Below are positions 6,272-32,069 of a stretch of 39,001 nucleotides of DNA, piece by piece (the stretch's first letter is position 1; the number at the start of each line of letters is the position of its first letter). Source of the DNA: Candidatus Altimarinota bacterium. Lineage in GTDB: Bacteria; Patescibacteriota; Gracilibacteria; BD1-5; JAGOOR01. The notes under the pieces were generated by a model. That model saw nothing but the letters and a program-made list of their open reading frames with translations, was not told the DNA's origin and made no database searches. Location of the stretch: contig JBFZBA010000061.1 of assembly GCA_041308705.1 (NCBI GenBank), positions 1 through 39,001 on the forward strand. The letters run 5' to 3'. The position numbers were made by a program, and so were the translations under genes.

Positions 6272-8188
6272 ATGTCTATCCGAAACTTCTGAATTATTGC
6301 GCATATCGATCACGGCAAATCAACCCTTGCAGATAGGATGCTCGAATTCACAGGAACCAAGGAAAAACGCGAAATGAAAAACAGCCAGATGCTCGATACA
6401 ATGGAGATAGAGCAGGAGCGTGGAATTACAATAAAACTCACACCAGTACGGATGTCCTGGAAAGGAAATGAAATCAATCTCATAGATACGCCAGGACATG
6501 TGGATTTCCAGTATGAGGTCTCGCGAAGTCTGGCATCAGTTGAATGAGTCGTTCTGGTGGTCGATGCAACGCAATGAATCGAAGCTCAGACACTCTCAAA
6601 TCTCTACATGGCGATTGAACATAATCTCGTCATCATACCCGTCCTGAATAAGATAGACCTCCCAAGCGCAGATGTCCCACGCGTCACACGCGAGATAGTC
6701 TCGCTGATAGGTTGCGATGAAGCGGATATCATACCCGTCTCTGCAAAGGTAGGAACCAATGTCGACAAAGTCCTCGATGCTATCGTTGAGCGAATCCCCG
6801 AACCAAGAAAAATAAATCGAAAGTGAGAAATAATTGCAGCGATGCCCCCTTGAGAAAGGGGGGTAGGGGGGATTTGGTGAATTGAAGAAGTCGTTCCAGA
6901 AAGTGTAAAGTTGTGATTAATATTTGATTCTCAGTACGATTCATATCGTGGTGTCGTCATCTATATCAAAATTTTTTCAGGTGAGATAAAACGAGGCGAT
7001 AAAATCACACTCATGAGTACCGACACTGTTGTCGATGTTCTCGAAGTAGGTTGTTTCAAACCAGAATATCACCCACTCCCCTCACTGAAATCATGAGAAA
7101 TCGGCTACATAGTCACAGGAATTAAGACACTGCAAGAAGCCCGCGTCGGAGATACTATTTTTGCCGGTGCACCAGAGTACAAACACCCTATTCCAGGATT
7201 TCAAAAAGTTGTCCCCTATGTCTTTGCTGGAGTCTACCCGGTCGATACAGAAGACTACAACCAGCTCAAGACGGACATCGAGAAACTCAAGATGAGTGAC
7301 AGTAGTCTGACAAACGAACACGAAGTCTCCCCCGCTCTCGGACATGGATTCCGTTGTGGATTTCTCGGACTCCTCCATATGGAAATTGTAAAGGAGCGCC
7401 TCGATCGAGAATTTGATTTGGATGTGATTTTAACATCTCCTCAAGTGACCTATCAAGTGATGATGCCCGGAGACCACAGCCATGAATTCAAGAATACTCC
7501 TCTCAAGGTCGAACAGATTGGAGAAAAAACCTACACCCGCCTCTGGATCAGAAATCCAGAAAATCTCCCAGAACCAGGAACCTACGAATGGATAGAAGAG
7601 CCTATTGTGAAGCTCGAGATAATCACTCGGTCAGATATGGTCGGTGAGATGATGAAGCTCGCTCAAGAACATCGTGGTATCTACAAAAATCAGGCATATA
7701 TCGATGAGAATCGCTCAATCCTGACCTACGAGATACCCATGGCAGAGATTATCACCGATTTCTACGACGAACTAAAATCTCGCTCATCAGGCTATGCGAG
7801 TATGAGCTACGAACAATTGAACTACAAAAGAGACGACCTTGTGAAGATAGATATCCTCGTGAACAACGAGCGAGTCTCAGCTTTCTCAACAATCACACAC
7901 AGAAGTAAATCATTCCATGTCGGAGTTGAGCTCTGTGGCAAGCTGAAAGAAGCCATCCCAAAACAACTCTTCTCTATCCCCATCCAGGCAGCTATTGGTG
8001 CGAAAGTCATCGCTCGTGAAACCATCTCACCACACAGAAAAGATGTCATAGGGCACCTCTACGGGGGCGATGTCACCCGAAAGAACAAACTCCTCGACAA
8101 ACAAAAGAAGGGAAAGAAAAAGATGAAAGAATTTGGAAAAGTCTCAATCCCGAGTGAGACATTTATTGATATTTTGAAGAAAAAATAA
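6272..8188 (+). CDS. lepA: Translation elongation factor 4 (LepA), carrying an extra insertion of about 28 aa after the G domain
   Basis: [30 protein letters not shown] and NKIDL are present. ORFs 6338-6547, 6608-6826 and 7292-8188 are all in frame with ATG 6272. [23 protein letters not shown] and the C-terminal [13 protein letters not shown] are typical of LepA. Confidence 0.93.
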
Positions 8189-10699: not shown

Positions 10700-10948
10700 A
10701 TGGCAGAAAAATTTATACGCTTTTGTATCACAAACATTGTCGAAAACCCTGACGCAGTTTCCCTGGAGATCAAGGAAGATCCAGACGCTACACGCTACCA
10801 ACTCACTGTCCACAGTGATGACATGAAGCGTGTGATTGGTCGTGGATGAAAAACTATCCGAGCTCTCCAATCTCTCGTCCGTATTATCGGCATAAAAAGT
10901 GATAAAAAGCTCTTCTTAAACCTCGTCGAACCATGTTCACCTCAATAG
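10700..10948 (+). CDS. KH-domain RNA-binding protein (YlqC/UPF0109 family)
   Basis: Conserved position after rpsP. Motif MKRVIGRGGKTIRALQSLV, with one Gly of the GxxG loop encoded by TGA. Confidence 0.8.
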
Positions 10949-11445
10949 TCTACGCTCAGACATCCACCTTTGCAGATGCATCTTCTCAGATTTATACTCT
11001 GGAAGAACTCATGACCGTCGGCATCGCTATACTTCTCCTCATCGCTGTTATCCTCACAATTGTGTTCGTACTTTGGTGAGGATTTTTGTTAGTCATTTCT
11101 GGTGGCGATGAACAAAAAGTGCATCCGGCTATCAATATGATTCGTTATTCGCTTATTGGTCTCATCGTGATGATTGTGATTATCCTCGTCACACCTGCAG
11201 TCTCTCGAGCAGTAGGATTTGAATCAATCGGTGAGAAATTCAGTCCAGGAAATATATTCCAGACCATGAAGTGCGTCTCTGATCGTGTATTTGGAAATAC
11301 TGACCAATCATGTTTTGCTGTCGCAAGCGGACAAACAGGTTTTTCATCAAACAGCTCATCATCAGGAATTCCTACTTTCGGAGGAAGTCGTAGTCAAGGC
11401 GGAAATAGTCCAAATGGTGTCGGGAACTGGACAGGAGATCTCTAA
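10933..11445 (+). CDS. VirB2/TrbC-like (T4SS-pilin-like) two-TM protein with a Gly/Ser/Asn-rich tail
   Basis: ATG 10933 is in frame with ORF 11086-11445 via TGA (VLWGGFLL). The arrangement is a hydrophobic helix, the loop SGGDEQKV, then a second hydrophobic helix. The gene overlaps the KH gene by 16 nt. Confidence 0.55.
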
Positions 11446-26057: not shown

Positions 26058-27572
26058 ATGGAAATAACCCAAAATAGTATATCTCACGAGGATGGTCTCC
26101 TCATCCTGACCTGTCTCGGCACACTCGATGAAAAAACCTCTCCCGCTATATTCGGAAGTGTACTCAAATACGCCAAAGAGGCGCCACAAGTAGCCGTATT
26201 TGACCTCAGTCGTGTCGAGTGAATCAAGACAGATTTCATTACGGGTATCCTGGAAGTAACCAAATACCTCCAAAACAATGGCGGTACAACAATTATTATT
26301 CCGGGAAAACTGGGCGACTTATTGGAGATAACAGGTATCAAACAAGCAGTACATATTTCTCAAAGTATGGACGAGGCAAAGGCGTACGCCCGAGAACGTT
26401 TTCCTCAGGTTATTAATTTCGTACGAGACAAACAGCAGCAACAAGATATCTCCCATGTAACTGAATGAGAAAATGTAGACCCTATATCTTGGAAATTTTT
26501 TGATGATGAAGAAAAAAAGCAGCTCAACATAGAAAATATCCTCAAATATGCCGTGGCAGCAAAAGCATCTGATGTACATCTAGCTACAGAAAAACCCATC
26601 ACTGTCAGAATCGAATGAGTCCTCATCAAGATAGATCACGAGCCATCACTTTCTCGCGAACACATGGATCAGGTGAAGAATAAAATACTCCAAAAGCATC
26701 CAGATATACTCGAAAAACTCGAGAAAGCCCACGATGCAGACTTTGGGTATGTGTCAGAAAGTGACGGAATATCTTTTCGTGTCAATGGAGCATGGGCACT
26801 CGAAAATCTCAACTTCACTTTCCGCAGAATAGAACAAAATGCCAAGACACTTCAGGAGCTCGATTTACCTCAAGCGATAGACCGATTTATTAATGCAAAA
26901 CAGGGACTCGTGCTCATCACAGGACCAACAGGATCAGGTAAATCAACGACACTCGTCGCAATGCTCGAGGAGATAAATAAGACTCGTGGTGAAAATATCA
27001 TCACCATTGAAGATCCTATAGAATTTATATTCAAAGATAAAAAATCTATTTTTTCTCAGAGAGAAGTGGGTCGAGATACTTCTTCTTTTGTCTCAGCAAT
27101 TCGAGCCTCAATGCGAGAAGACCCAAATGTCGTCATGATTGGCGAAATGCGTGATCCAGATACAGTAGAGGCAGCCCTCAATCTGGCAGAAACAGGTCAC
27201 CTCGTCTTCTCAACACTCCATACATCTGGTAGCGTACAGACGATTAGCCGTATAGCTCAATTTTTCAGCCCAGAACAACAGAGACAGATATATACGAGAC
27301 TCGCGGATAGTCTCCTAGGGGTACTCTCACAGAGACTCGTACTTCGGAGAGATGGGAGCAATAAAAGAACGGCCATATTTGAGCTCATGCTCGTGAATAG
27401 CGGAATAAAAAATCTCATCCGTTCTGGCGATCTCTCACAGATAGATAATGCTATCCAAATGGGGCGATCAGAGGGTATGATACCAATGTATATTCATGCT
27501 CAAGAACTTGAACAAAAATGAATCATACACCGAGAAGACTACGCAGGATTCTTTACTAATCAGGATATATAA
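26058..27572 (+). CDS. pilT: STAS (SpoIIAA-like anti-sigma-antagonist) domain fused to a PilT-type type IV pilus retraction ATPase, 504 aa
   Basis: I translated the frame codon by codon from ATG 26058 and found no TAA/TAG before ORF 26664-27521 (TGA at 26220, 26466, 26616, 27519). The N-terminus is LTCLGTLDEKTSPAIF...VAVFDLSRVEGIKTDFITGIL...IIIPGKLGDLLEITGI. The ATPase motifs are ITGPTGSGKSTT, IITIEDPIEF, MIGEMRD and TGHLVFSTLHT. Confidence 0.85.
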
Positions 27573-27578
27573 AAGCCT

Positions 27579-28556
27579 ATGGATTACTTTATAAAAAACA
27601 TCCGCCAATTTCTCCCACATATAGCATTTTGTGTACTATTGCTCATAATTAACACCTCCTGGGCAGCTGGTGTGACAGGTATAGGAAATGCCTCGAGCAC
27701 GACTCGGAACCTCGCGGATAACTCTCTCTTCCGCCCTGGTTCTGGAGATCTCGTATGAGCAGTTCGAAATGTCGCTCTCGATATCATCCGAGCTGTGCGT
27801 ATTATCCTGAATGGTATTGCTCTTCTCGCGATGCTCTATGTCGGATTTCTCTGGGTGAGCAGTATGGGCAATGAAGAAAAACGAAGTGACGGAACATATC
27901 GGATACTCCTCATTGTCATAGGGCTTTTCCTCATAAATGTCGCAGAGCTCCTCTACAATATCATTACTGGTAGTAGTTATCTGAGTAGTGGGTTTAGCCG
28001 TAAAGTATGATCGATATCAACGAGAGATCCAGGTGGAGAATTTAGCCAATCAGCACTTGAAACATGTAATTACTTTTTCTGCCCACAGAATTTCTGGGGA
28101 AATGGAAGCGTTATCGCTATAGTAAAATTCTTCGAAATGGCCATGATAGGTACTGCTGTCGTGATGTTTACCTGGGGATGATTCACTATGTTATTTGCAG
28201 GGAACAATGAAAATACATCAAAAACTGCAAAAATGAGACTGGTATATGGAGTGATTGCTCTCGTTGTCGTAGGATTTATAGAGTCTATCTATCGTGCTAT
28301 ATTTTTCTGAAGAAACCTCAATACCACAGGGCTCATGAGTGTGCTGGTAGCAATAGCAAATTTCTTCCTATTTATGGCAGGTCCCATCGCTATAGTCACC
28401 ATCATCATAGGATCATACTACTATATCACTGCAGCAGGAAATGAAGAACGAGCCGACAAAGGCAAAAAAATAATTCTCTATACATTTTTTGCCACTATAC
28501 TACTCATACTCTCATACACACTCCTCATAGAGCTGATATGACTTAATCTCTTCTAA
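27579..28556 (+). CDS. Polytopic membrane protein with three tandem VirB2/TrbC-like pilin modules, 325 aa
   Basis: ORFs 27795-28010 and 28335-28541 are in frame with ATG 27579. Only TGA interrupts the frame; I translated the junctions by hand. The helix-loop-helix module occurs three times, with loops SMGNEEKR (aa 95-102), AGNNENTSK (aa 207-215) and AGNEERADK (aa 286-294). Confidence 0.6.
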
Positions 28557-28559
28557 ACT

Positions 28560-29003
28560 ATGAAAAAAATATATATACTCATCGCAGCGCTCATTGCCAC
28601 ATCCGGCGTATTTGCGCAGTACCAGCAGGATAATCTCCCTCCAGGGCTCCTCGGTAAAAATCTAATGATTACTACCTACACTGCCAATCCAGATATAGAA
28701 AATAAAAACTGTATACTTATTTCATGACGAGGCCAAACAGCGAGATACAAGTGCTATATTTCAGCATCAAGTGGATTCATAGATTTCATCGCTAGTATAT
28801 ACAAATATATCTTCTTTATCAGTCTCGTCATAGGCGTTCTCCTCATGGTCATACTAGGCATAGGCATGTCTATCTCCGGAGTCGCAACCGAAGAAATCAA
28901 AAACAAGGCAAAAGCCAAAATCATGGACATACTGATTGGTCTCGTGGCTCTCGCTCTGGTCCCATGGATACTCAAGACTATAGCTCCGTTCTTCTTTAAA
29001 TAG
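28560..29003 (+). CDS. VirB2/TrbC-like pilin-like protein with signal peptide, 147 aa
   Basis: MKKIYILIAALIATSGVFAQ signal peptide. The C-terminal module is VLLMVILGIGMSISGVATEEIKNKAKAKIMDILIGLVALALV. One TGA codon. TAG at 29001-29003. Confidence 0.55.
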
Positions 29004-30130: not shown

Positions 30131-30985
30131 TTAAGCTCTCTTTGAGAGCTTTTTTTGTGCAAAAAATAGAGCCGCAGCGAGAAGAAGAAATAAAAGAATT
30201 CACTCTGGACCTGTATGTGGAAGTATATCAATAGGAACTGGTTCGGTGAATACAGGCTCCGTTGGCTCCTCTTGAAGAGTCTCAGGAGATGGTACGATAT
30301 CTGGAGACAGTGTATCGAGGGGAGGAAGTACACCCCCGTAGATAACCTTGAGCGGTATACGATTTTCAGAAGGGAGCTCACTACCATCGAGAGAAGTGAC
30401 CTTCTGAAAAGTGAGCTCATACTGACCATCGAGTTCCATCTTCGACTTGAGTGTGATAATTATGATACGCAGATCGTTCGGAGAATTTTTGATTTCTTGT
30501 ACTTGGAGAGGTTTTTTTGTGCTGAGATTTGTAAGAGTTATCTGAGTTTTTGAAGCATCTATCGGACGAGAAAATCACAACTCCAGAGTTGTCTCACTAC
30601 TGACAAGTGGATCTCGAGCGAGATTCATCTGTGGGGTAGCGGAATAGGTGCGCACATGAAGCGGAATCGTTGTGCCTATTTCTTTTCACTCGGCATTATA
30701 GCCATGGACTTTGATTGTGTATTCTGTTGCGGGAGAAATCTGTGTTAGTTCACCTTCTGTCGTTGTGATAAAATCAGTATCCAGGAGGAGACGAGGATTA
30801 GTAGGCTCGAGAAGAGCGCTCTCGTCATAAAATATCTTATACTGGGTTGCTTCTGGTATGGGCATCCATGAAACAGTCATGGAAGTATCGGCTATTTTCT
30901 TTGCTTGGAGGATACTCTGAGAAGAATCAACTGCAAAGACCGAAGAGACTATTGCAAGAAAGAGGAGAATATATACTCTGTACAT
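30131..30985 (-). CDS. Sortase-anchored surface protein: signal peptide, FN3-like domain, Ig-like domain, Pro/Glu-rich linker, LPXTG sorting signal
   Basis: Start at MYRVYILLFLAIVSSVFA (30985). The FN3 pattern is TSMTVSWMPIPEATQYKIFYDE...ATEYTIKVHGYNAEGKE. ORFs 30686-31312 and 30200-30439 are joined through TGA codons. The C-terminus is LPHTG-PEGILLFLLLAAALFFAQ-KKLSKRA, followed by TAA. Confidence 0.7.
30133..30157. terminator. Intrinsic terminator after rplA; the hairpin also encodes the C-terminal tail of the convergent LPXTG gene
   Basis: AAGCTCTC-ttt-GAGAGCTT followed by TTTTT. Confidence 0.65.
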
Positions 30986-31004: not shown

Positions 31005-31652
31005 ATGTACTGAAATACTACACCAAAAACACTTTTTACGAAAGGAAAAAGGACAAGAACGGCGTGATTTACACTTGTAGAAATAATGATTGTCATTGTA
31101 ATCATAATTTTGCTGACACAGCTCGGCAATATAGGAGGATTATTTCGTACGCGCGAGCGCAATAAGGTTGAAGAAATAGCTGTAAAAATAGTGGCAGCTA
31201 TCGATGAAGAAAAAGTAAATGCCCTCCTCGGTAAAACACTTGATGGCAAAATAGTAAGAAAAAGGCTCGCTGAGCTGAATTTCTGAGCGACACCAAACAC
31301 CATCTCCTTCACTTCAGCAGTAAATCTCGCAGAAATAGATGAGGCTACCTATGATGCGGCCTCAAAAATAACAAAGTCATGGTCCCTTGCTGCACTCGAA
31401 TCCGAGCTCTATAAGTGTTCGTCAACAGCAACTCCGATAGAGATTGAAAAAATAGAACTCGAATTTAGAAATGATACAATAAAATTTCTTATAAATGACC
31501 CTGCTATAGAGATTCCTAATCATATAGTACTCCTCCTCAAGCATACAAATACGGCCCATGAGATACATATAGACAGGAGAACTGGGCTCACCTACGAGAG
31601 AAAAAGCCCTGGTAAAAATACTGATGGCACCTGGCAAGTACTTTGTAATTAA
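31005..31652 (+). CDS. Type IV pilin / pseudopilin with class III signal peptide
   Basis: MYGNTTPKTLFTKGKRTRTA-G|FTLVEIMIVIVIIILL, where the -1 Gly is TGA at 31065-31067. The frame stays open through TGA 31284-31286 to TAA 31650-31652. Confidence 0.75.
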
Positions 31653-31658
31653 TTGCTT

Positions 31659-32069
31659 ATGAAACTCATCATCCTCATCATCGGTCTTGTATTGTCTATA
31701 TGGGTAGCTGTCGCTGTCTATACCCCTACACAAGCATTTGTCACCGATATAAAAGAAATATATCTCAAAAGTAGAGCAACGCAGAGAACTATTAGTCAAA
31801 AATCAGAAACAACCATCAATACCATCACAGAATCTTACAAGGAAATAGCTCGAGTCTTTGGAGTGAAAGTCGCAGAAGAAAATATAAAAGAAGAAGTCTC
31901 TACCCCTGCCCCAACAGGCGAGCGGGATCCTGTTGAACAACTTTTTGAACACAATGTAGCCCTCTGGATAGCAACTGCCGCCGGATTTATGACTCTCAGC
32001 ATATACATAAATATCATCTCATTTTTTGCATTTTTCTTGAAGCCTGTGACATTCTTGATGAAAAAATAA
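31659..32069 (+). CDS. Hypothetical bitopic membrane protein (136 aa) immediately downstream of the pilin gene
   Basis: N-terminal TM segment KLIILIIGLVLSIWVAVAVY and C-terminal TM segment. No motif was recognised. Confidence 0.45.
   Translation: MKLIILIIGLVLSIWVAVAVYTPTQAFVTDIKEIYLKSRATQRTISQKSETTINTITESYKEIARVFGVKVAEENIKEEVSTPAPTGERDPVEQLFEHNVALWIATAAGFMTLSIYINIISFFAFFLKPVTFLMKK

Follow-up and report, generated by a model that had tools for sequence, protein, structure and literature searches.

The contig studied here, a 39,001-nucleotide (nt) stretch of a Gracilibacteria genome (Candidatus Altimarinota bacterium, contig JBFZBA010000061.1; hereafter the window), raises the question of why a gene for a PilT-family ATPase is followed, within a few nucleotides, by a reading frame in which three pilin-like modules seem to be joined, and then by a second gene carrying a single such module. 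By its reading frame and profile matches, the first of these two genes is a fusion of three VirB2-like (PF18895) modules, joined in frame behind one predicted signal peptide; it is called here the tri-module gene and its neighbor the single-module gene. As to what they do, we tentatively favor a reading, quite possible if still somewhat short of probable, in which both proteins are subunits of VirB2 type, in the membrane or in a pilus, and the PilT-family ATPase is coupled to their passage out of the membrane or into it.

Whether the fused frame exists at all depends on the genetic code. Gene coordinates were read from the window under code 25, in which TGA encodes glycine, and this code is needed window-wide: the genes for SecA (886 amino acids, aa), PNPase, FtsH and the PilT-like protein (504 aa) are intact only with TGA read through. 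Under code 25, the frame that starts 6 nt (AAGCCT) after the PilT-like TAA stays open for 325 codons, and its own TAA lies 3 nt (ACT) ahead of the ATG at 28560 that opens a 147-codon frame. An earlier reading of the letters alone, made with a list of open reading frames (ORFs) and hereafter the sequence-only reading, had placed a fragmented 325-aa ORF just after the PilT stop, which these coordinates confirm. The table-11 ORF list breaks the frame at its in-frame TGA codons, of which there are five (aa 60, 144, 201, 244 and 321), and the resulting pieces cut through the modules and lack sensible starts. In a codon-by-codon alignment of the window gene with three homologs from long contigs (L001, L002 and L003), the TGA columns are mostly GGN glycine codons in the other genes (e.g., alignment columns 32, 80, 98, 116, 179, 206, 229, 237 and 328), and the two TGA codons of the window gene that fall in linkers are sense codons in the three homologs (ACG or GAT at aa 144, CAA at aa 244). 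Real TAA or TAG stops between modules, named by the sequence-only reading as what would speak against a fusion, were found in none of the 43 orthologs from species-level genomes read with table 25. Because of the codon alignment and these stop-free orthologs, the fusion is genuine and no artefact of genetic code or assembly. The opposite proposal, that several short genes are split by real TGA stops or that the frame is mis-assembled, is refuted by the contig-wide use of TGA as a sense codon together with the alignment and the orthologs, and retains virtually no probability. Public translations of the tri-module family often carry Trp at TGA (table 4, e.g., P0001 and other homologs) or are broken into fragments (table 11, e.g., L061); the codon alignment supports Gly (table 25) and not Trp at these positions.

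The modules were compared with the Pfam family PF18895 (T4SS_pilin), whose gathering cut-off is 26.6 bits. The whole 325-aa protein reaches 54.5 bits (E 1.2e-14) over three stretches, and modules 2 and 3 taken alone exceed the cut-off (32.4 and 30.3 bits, respectively), while module 1 alone gives no match at E <= 1e-3. Comparison of family profiles with hhalign relates each pair of modules (P = 1.9e-6 for modules 1 and 2, 4.7e-7 for 1 and 3, and 2.1e-5 for 2 and 3). The three tandem pilin modules of the sequence-only reading are therefore recovered, with the reservation that the first is a much weaker copy. Within module 1, aa 69-131 are also the best stretch of a weak match to NF045849, the NCBIfam model of a mycoplasma pilin-like conjugal transfer protein. 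The quoted loops are all present, SMGNEEKR at aa 95-102, AGNNENTSK at aa 207-215 and AGNEERADK at aa 285-293, as is a fourth in the 147-aa protein (aa 106-120, SGVATEEIKNKAKAK).

Hydropathy of the 325-aa protein gives a signal-like N-terminus followed by six long hydrophobic segments. Structure was modelled with AlphaFold2 (AF2) on P0003, a homolog of the same length that is 87% identical to the window protein. A first model built from 26 sequences was poor (pLDDT 55.6); a second, to which 20 relatives were added (3 at 40-50% and 17 distant representatives at 19-28% identity), reached a pLDDT of 69.8 and a pTM of 0.52, with helices at 70-86. In this model the predicted helices are trustworthy and the packing of the hairpins is not. 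The six long AF2 helices and the hydropathy segments pair as three hairpins. From hydropathy, charge distribution and the AF2 helices, both ends of each module would lie outside the cell after signal-peptide cleavage, with the short acidic/basic loop in the cytoplasm. Since both module ends would be outside, concatenation would keep the topology of a single VirB2 pilin.

The same topology bears on the possibility that the 325-aa protein is a polyprotein precursor, cut in its outside linkers into three pilins that would assemble with the fourth. If every module forms a whole hairpin that begins and ends outside, cutting would release three ordinary pilins; multi-step processing is known for VirB2 and TrbC pilins, and the linker between modules 1 and 2 is long (44 aa). 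However, the linker between modules 2 and 3 counts only about 8 residues, is poorly conserved (majority-residue fraction 0.39) and shows no recognisable signal-peptidase motif, no protease gene is conserved in the operon, and relatives whose modules number up to 17 and are joined by short linkers suggest that concatenation is itself the functional form. A precursor is thus highly unlikely. The longer linker carries the motif CNYFFCPQNF, whose C163 and C168 never vary within the close clade and are missing from distant clades; the two residues may be joined by a disulfide bond.

The age of the fusion was approached through its relatives. A word-indexed search returned 34 close homologs (E <= 1e-60; 45-98% identity over the aligned region, partials included), of which the full-length ones (n=23) measure 315-347 aa. 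A further word-indexed search, this time with the family alignment, stopped short of the distant clades, which were found through a scan of one genome per species and an exhaustive search of representatives. In the genome scan, full-length relatives occur in 45 loci (27-99% identity), all of them from Gracilibacteria-type metagenome-assembled genomes, including oral GN02, and 43 orthologs (24-99% identity) consist of a single frame throughout. The relatives form three clades with about 28-38% identity between clades. Same-position identity across clades amounts to 0.35 for module 2 and 0.49 for module 3, against 0.17-0.26 off-diagonal, so that these two modules are positionally orthologous and the triplication is older than the clade split. 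By this comparison the fusion is ancient and has been retained as a single polypeptide across the class Gracilibacteria. Ala29 at the predicted cleavage site is kept in 88% of the 43 orthologs. The best-conserved parts are the loops predicted to be cytoplasmic and module 3 (majority-residue fraction 0.78 in loop 3) and the least conserved are the regions predicted outside (0.35-0.39), a pattern consistent with an inner-face or lumen contact that is conserved and an exposed surface that varies. The residues E99, E211, E290 and K296 do not vary.

The 147-aa protein was described by the sequence-only reading as a fourth copy of the module behind a signal peptide, 3 nt further on. Its spacing, signal peptide and module agree with that description, but its match to PF18895 (20.7 bits, E 4.5e-4) falls below the cut-off, and those of its orthologs are likewise weak. 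An iterated jackhmmer search and the module hidden Markov model (HMM) group it with the tri-module proteins. In 37 of the 45 species-level loci, the single-module gene immediately follows the tri-module gene.

The upstream neighbor is, as judged from profile scores, a bona fide PilT-clade enzyme. It contains a Walker A motif (GPTGSGKST) and the motif GIKNLIRSG, and matches TIGR01420 (pilT_fam, covering PilT/PilU) with 359 bits over aa 158-494 (cut-off 319.1). Its scores against the models of DotB (158.1 bits, cut-off 463.3), TraJ (147.3 bits, cut-off 368.3) and VirB11 (50 bits) are far below the respective cut-offs, and the GspE and PilB models failed as well. The nearest solved relatives are PilT (254 bits), then PilU (183), DotB (148) and GspE/PilB. 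A search for PilT homologs gave 7,982 matches, of which the best 120 were examined. The STAS domain is confined to the close clade, where PilT has 503-505 aa, and PilT of the sister clade has about 355 aa and no STAS domain; a distinctive C-terminal tail (...ED[YF]xG[FY]FTN[QD]D) is common to PilT of these first two clades. The STAS-PilT operon partner proposed by the sequence-only reading hence holds as regards a PilT in a tight operon, whereas the STAS domain belongs to one clade only and the third clade has no PilT adjacent upstream.

Of the 43 assessable species-level loci, 29 have PilT as the immediate upstream neighbor of the tri-module gene, separated from it by short intergenic gaps; they comprise all 16 loci of the window clade (STAS-PilT) and 13 loci of the second clade (PilT of about 355 aa). 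In two loci of the third clade, a divergent PilT is found a short way downstream of the tri-module gene; L044 and L051 preserve the link in another order: tri-module gene, small gene, PilT. Together with the downstream counts given above, these loci bear out the conserved pilT-polypilin-pilin order that the sequence-only reading had proposed to survey, here across Gracilibacteria. The outer flanks differ by clade, with SecA or DnaJ in the first and YbaB and an acidic coiled-coil protein in the second; because these flanks are unrelated, the trio of PilT, tri-module and single-module genes is retained as a unit. No terminator-like sites were found inside the operon, and a promoter/terminator scan gave the same counts as shuffled sequences. 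The features of the locus are collected in Table 1.

Table 1. Positions of the operon, its domains and modules, and the genes downstream (window coordinates)
Feature	Position	Strand	Details
STAS-PilT ATPase gene	26058..27572	+	504 aa under code 25, four in-frame TGA, TAA end
STAS domain	26085-26378 (aa 10-107)	+	PF01740, 25.5 bits (cut-off 22.6)
T2SSE ATPase domain	26520-27368 (aa 155-437)	+	PF00437, 171.6 bits
Tri-module PF18895 gene	27579..28556	+	ATG 27579, 325 codons, TAA 28554-28556; one polypeptide under code 25
Predicted Sec signal peptide	27579..27665 (aa 1-29)	+	...NTSWA/AG cleavage; from hydropathy, conservation and AF2 helix 2-24; cleavage site inferred
In-frame TGA codons of the tri-module gene	27756-27758; 28008-28010 (aa 144, linker of modules 1 and 2); 28179-28181; 28308-28310 (junction of modules 2 and 3); 28539-28541	+	read from sequence
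Module 1	27762..27974 (aa 62-132)	+	helix, loop SMGNEEKRSD, helix; divergent copy; AF2 helices 58-94, 99-130
CNYFFCPQNF motif	28065..28094	+	in the 44-aa linker of modules 1 and 2, predicted outside the cell
Module 2	28098..28310 (aa 174-244)	+	helix, loop AGNNENTSKTA, helix; AF2 helices 177-206, 211-243
Module 3	28332..28544 (aa 252-322)	+	helix, loop AAGNEERADKGKK, helix; AF2 helices 249-283, 289-321
Single-module paralog (147 aa)	28560..29003	+	signal peptide aa 1-19; region of about 55 aa predicted outside, with two Cys; hairpin module
Hairpin module of the 147-aa paralog	28782-28979 (aa 75-140)	+	PF18895 below cut-off
Surface protein	30131..30985	-	signal peptide, fn3 domain, Ig-like region, C-terminal LPHTG sorting signal; operon link uncertain
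Prepilin-type (N_methyl) type IV pilin-like protein	31005..31652	+	G/FTLVEIM cleavage; PF07963, 22.4 bits (cut-off 21.2); operon link uncertain
136-aa membrane protein	31659-32069	+	hydrophobic segments at both ends; directly after the prepilin-type gene

Such conserved linkage could still lack mechanistic meaning, the two PF18895 proteins serving a VirB4-type system encoded elsewhere and PilT serving type IV pili, with nothing shared beyond a transcription unit. The components of type IV secretion systems (T4SSs) are indeed unusually scattered in Gracilibacteria (PMC12102498). Moreover, 12 of the 43 loci hold the pair of tri- and single-module genes with no PilT within about 6 kb, and other multi-module PF18895 genes lie near the gene for a type IV coupling protein (T4CP) with no PilT. 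Yet the linkage has outlasted a decrease of tri-module identity to about 28% between clades and a complete replacement of the outer flanks, the intergenic gaps are a few nucleotides long, and L044 and L051 retain the link despite their changed gene order. On balance it is unlikely that the genes are neighbors without being partners.

Partnership, however, does not in itself make the two proteins filament subunits. They could instead form a polytopic inner-membrane partner of PilT (an anchor, a regulator or a platform) in an ordinary type IV pilus machinery, tuning the retraction of pili made of N_methyl pilins. Such a role would suit an ATPase that is a true PilT. Gracilibacteria PilT orthologs appear solitary, outside pilB/pilC clusters, and the PilT of the operon may therefore be the only one. 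The cytoplasmic loops that would face it are the most conserved part of the tri-module protein, but with 10-14 residues they differ from the large cytoplasmic domains of PilC, the known PilT partner. A prepilin-type gene does lie about 2 kb downstream in the window clade, but this N_methyl neighbor is kept in that clade only, and the PilT-free pairs of the 12 loci mentioned above fit poorly with an accessory of PilT. Members of the family also sit in T4SS loci of other Patescibacteria (PMC12102498) and, in L005, near a T4CP gene. An accessory role in type IV pilus retraction is accordingly judged improbable, at about the same level as linkage without mechanistic meaning.

The genes for the fn3/LPXTG surface protein, the N_methyl protein and the 136-aa membrane protein lie 1-3 kb downstream of the operon and form a block with that for EF-P. 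Their membership in the operon is uncertain because they are kept nearby in the close clade only. No pilB, pilC, pilM, pilN/O or prepilin peptidase gene was found in the window, whose surroundings are of housekeeping type with one N_methyl protein only.

According to the reading we favor, the tri-module and single-module proteins, with four hairpins between them, would form a membrane-embedded pool from which a VirB2-type surface filament or channel is built. The PilT-family ATPase would dock on the cytoplasmic face and drive or gate the passage by which hairpins leave the membrane or return to it, a role parallel to that of VirB11 and DotB for type IV secretion and of PilT for type IV pili. 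The STAS domain fused to PilT in the window clade would serve as an additional, regulatory switch.

Several results weigh against this proposal and keep it tentative. The ATPase may simply be the retraction motor of the cell's type IV pili, and the loops predicted to be cytoplasmic, given the length stated above, leave little surface for an ATPase to grip. The PilT-free loci have their counterpart in PilT orthologs that are found alone or with other neighbors and no PF18895 genes nearby; the coupling to PilT is therefore not obligatory. T4SS genes (VirB4, T4CP, VirB6 or other) were found neither in the 39-kb window nor less than 10 kb from the gene in the three long homologous contigs L001-L003. 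The connection to VirB2 is also indirect. Of the two HMM searches suggested by the sequence-only reading, that with PF18895 was positive for the 325-aa protein, but neither the 325-aa nor the 147-aa protein matches PF04956 (TrbC/VirB2) even at E <= 10. The link between PF18895 and VirB2 is drawn from the assignment made by Pfam, from the literature and from one relative with three modules, P0039, in which the same module matches both PF18895 (78.6 bits) and PF04956 (39.2 bits, cut-off 27.9). At the level of structure, a search of the module profile against the sequences of the PDB gave chance matches only, with no solved VirB2, TraA or other pilin. Foldseek searches of the PDB with the two AF2 models gave best E values of 0.17 and 0.6, a weak test given short hairpins and moderate model confidence; the non-significant matches of the first model were V-ATPase c subunits.

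The operon can be placed among known systems according to what it shares with each of them. Patescibacteria are known to carry essential arrays in which divergent genes for VirB2-like pilins stand side by side; these arrays count 2-11 genes, and the T4SS locus of Southlakia epibionticum is an example (PMC12102498, PMC10633639, PMC12857230). Arrays of single-module PF18895 genes, with 5-7 genes each, were likewise found in Saccharibacteria, Doudnabacteria and Dojkabacteria (loci L054-L060). The operon resembles these arrays in its PF18895 family, its two-helix hairpin with a short charged loop and its grouping of several divergent copies. It differs from them in that three copies are fused and a fourth is separate, in having PilT as neighbor instead of VirB4, VirB6 and VirB3, and in the absence of any T4SS gene nearby.

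DotB and TraJ, which belong to type IVB secretion and IncI plasmids, are a precedent for PilT-clade ATPases at work in type IV secretion, and VirB2, TrbC and TraA, with VirB11 or DotB/TraJ, share with the operon a membrane-stored hairpin pilin and a hexameric PF00437 ATPase. The hybrid of T4SS-type subunits and type IV pilus motor put forward by the sequence-only reading as a possibility may be set beside this precedent, but the ATPase matches neither the DotB nor the TraJ model (158 and 147 bits). Further differences are the lack of a PF04956 match, a score below the VirB11 model, the lack of a nearby VirB4 and a monoderm host. The retraction module of type IV pili, in which PilT acts via PilC, is similar in that the ATPase is a PilT both by HMM cut-off and by its nearest solved structures, and in the prepilin-type gene 2 kb away in the close clade. 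In contrast, the membrane proteins of the operon are VirB2-type hairpins that lack an N_methyl motif and are not PilC-like, and pilB, pilC and pilM are missing from the window. As an analogy only, the c/K proteolipids of V-/A-type ATPases are oligomerising two-helix hairpins that were duplicated and fused (doubled in V-ATPases, tripled in Methanocaldococcus and 13-fold in Methanopyrus), which fixes stoichiometry and neighbor order; they have no sequence or significant fold relationship to the tri-module protein.

The fused arrangement extends beyond Gracilibacteria. A 71-position profile built from 20 single modules was searched against 1.84 billion representative proteins and matched 71,384 representatives at E <= 1e-3, of which 284 have E <= 1e-30, the score range of proteins with at least three modules. 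These counts agree with the statement of the sequence-only reading that the family is normally single-module. The best 150 of the 71,384 matches all carry at least three modules, so that the protein clusters in the range of 3 to 17 modules number 150 or more; the largest counts are 17 (in 1,775 aa), 11, 10, 8 and 7. Judged from these matches, single modules are the rule and fused forms recur in candidate phyla radiation (CPR) bacteria and in Altiarchaeales. A search of the literature found no description of fused modules or of their linkage to PilT, the relevant papers dealing with arrays of separate genes. Hence the remark of the sequence-only reading that it had not seen a concatenated polypilin beside PilT described stands as far as the papers searched go, but public data contain many proteins of 3-17 modules, and for some of them a pilin label is already in use: NCBI uses "pilin" for one member of the gracilibacterial arrays of multi-module PF18895 genes and JGI "VirB2 component (pilin)" for a three-module relative. 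The tri-module protein would be one member of this broad and apparently undescribed group of multi-hairpin "polypilins".

Several loci met in the course of the analysis deserve mention. Proteins with 7-17 modules (P0047, P0052, P0067, P0068, P0049, P0040 and P0041) are all annotated as hypothetical, and sources of multi-module proteins include Peregrinibacteria, Andersenbacteria and Altiarchaeales archaea (OYT27652.1, MCK4491598.1). In the gracilibacterial locus L005 (8617-14830), four near-consecutive PF18895 genes encode proteins of 458, 510 (four modules), 448 and 170 aa; they are followed by a PKD-repeat protein and lie about 8 kb from a gene for a TrwB-type coupling protein. Within the window, a 170-aa ORF on the forward strand (10933-11445), after the genes for S16 and a KH protein, encodes another single-module PF18895 protein (27.4 bits against the cut-off of 26.6). 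Its loop is ISGGDEQKVH, its tail is rich in Gly and Ser, and read from the first ATG it shows no clear signal peptide. The LPHTG of the surface protein at 30131-30985 is followed by a hydrophobic stretch and KKLSKRA, the whole being a cell-wall sorting signal of the sortase type, here in a member of the CPR. The acidic coiled-coil protein has 200-400 aa and precedes PilT in clade 2 (L026-L038) or the tri-module gene in clade 3 (L044, L045, L049 and L051). Its N-terminus reads MG[FL]FD, its long middle part is acidic and of low complexity, and a coiled coil lies at the C-terminus; it matches no Pfam family, and the window clade, where PilT has STAS instead, lacks it. In L062, PilT is followed by a gene for a secreted Fibrinogen_C-domain protein (7150-8016) in place of the PF18895 pair; upstream, L062 has the same genes as L061, and 5 kb away lies a gene for a coupling protein.

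VirB2-like pilins in Patescibacteria are a recent surprise, and the arrangement described here bears on how they may be used. The hairpins come as 3+1 in two polypeptides, an arrangement that is fixed and conserved and would constrain any assembly model, in which neighboring subunits have to sit where the linker lengths allow. With a retraction-type ATPase as conserved operon partner, motor-driven extraction or retraction of VirB2-type subunits becomes a directly testable idea. A bolder proposal, which we regard as doubtful, is that Gracilibacteria build an unrecognised dynamic appendage from concatenated VirB2-type hairpins (3+1), powered by PilT and independent of VirB4, and that polypilins of 3-17 hairpins represent a general strategy, so far undescribed, by which the order of subunits is hard-wired in filaments or channels associated with lipids. 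The fused form, with 3 to 17 modules in bacteria and archaea, is in any case a recurring solution, which current T4SS surveys count as just "a pilin". Even if the linkage to PilT were plain synteny, the tri-module proteins would still constitute a well-defined, class-wide membrane protein family that is routinely fragmented by gene callers using the wrong code.

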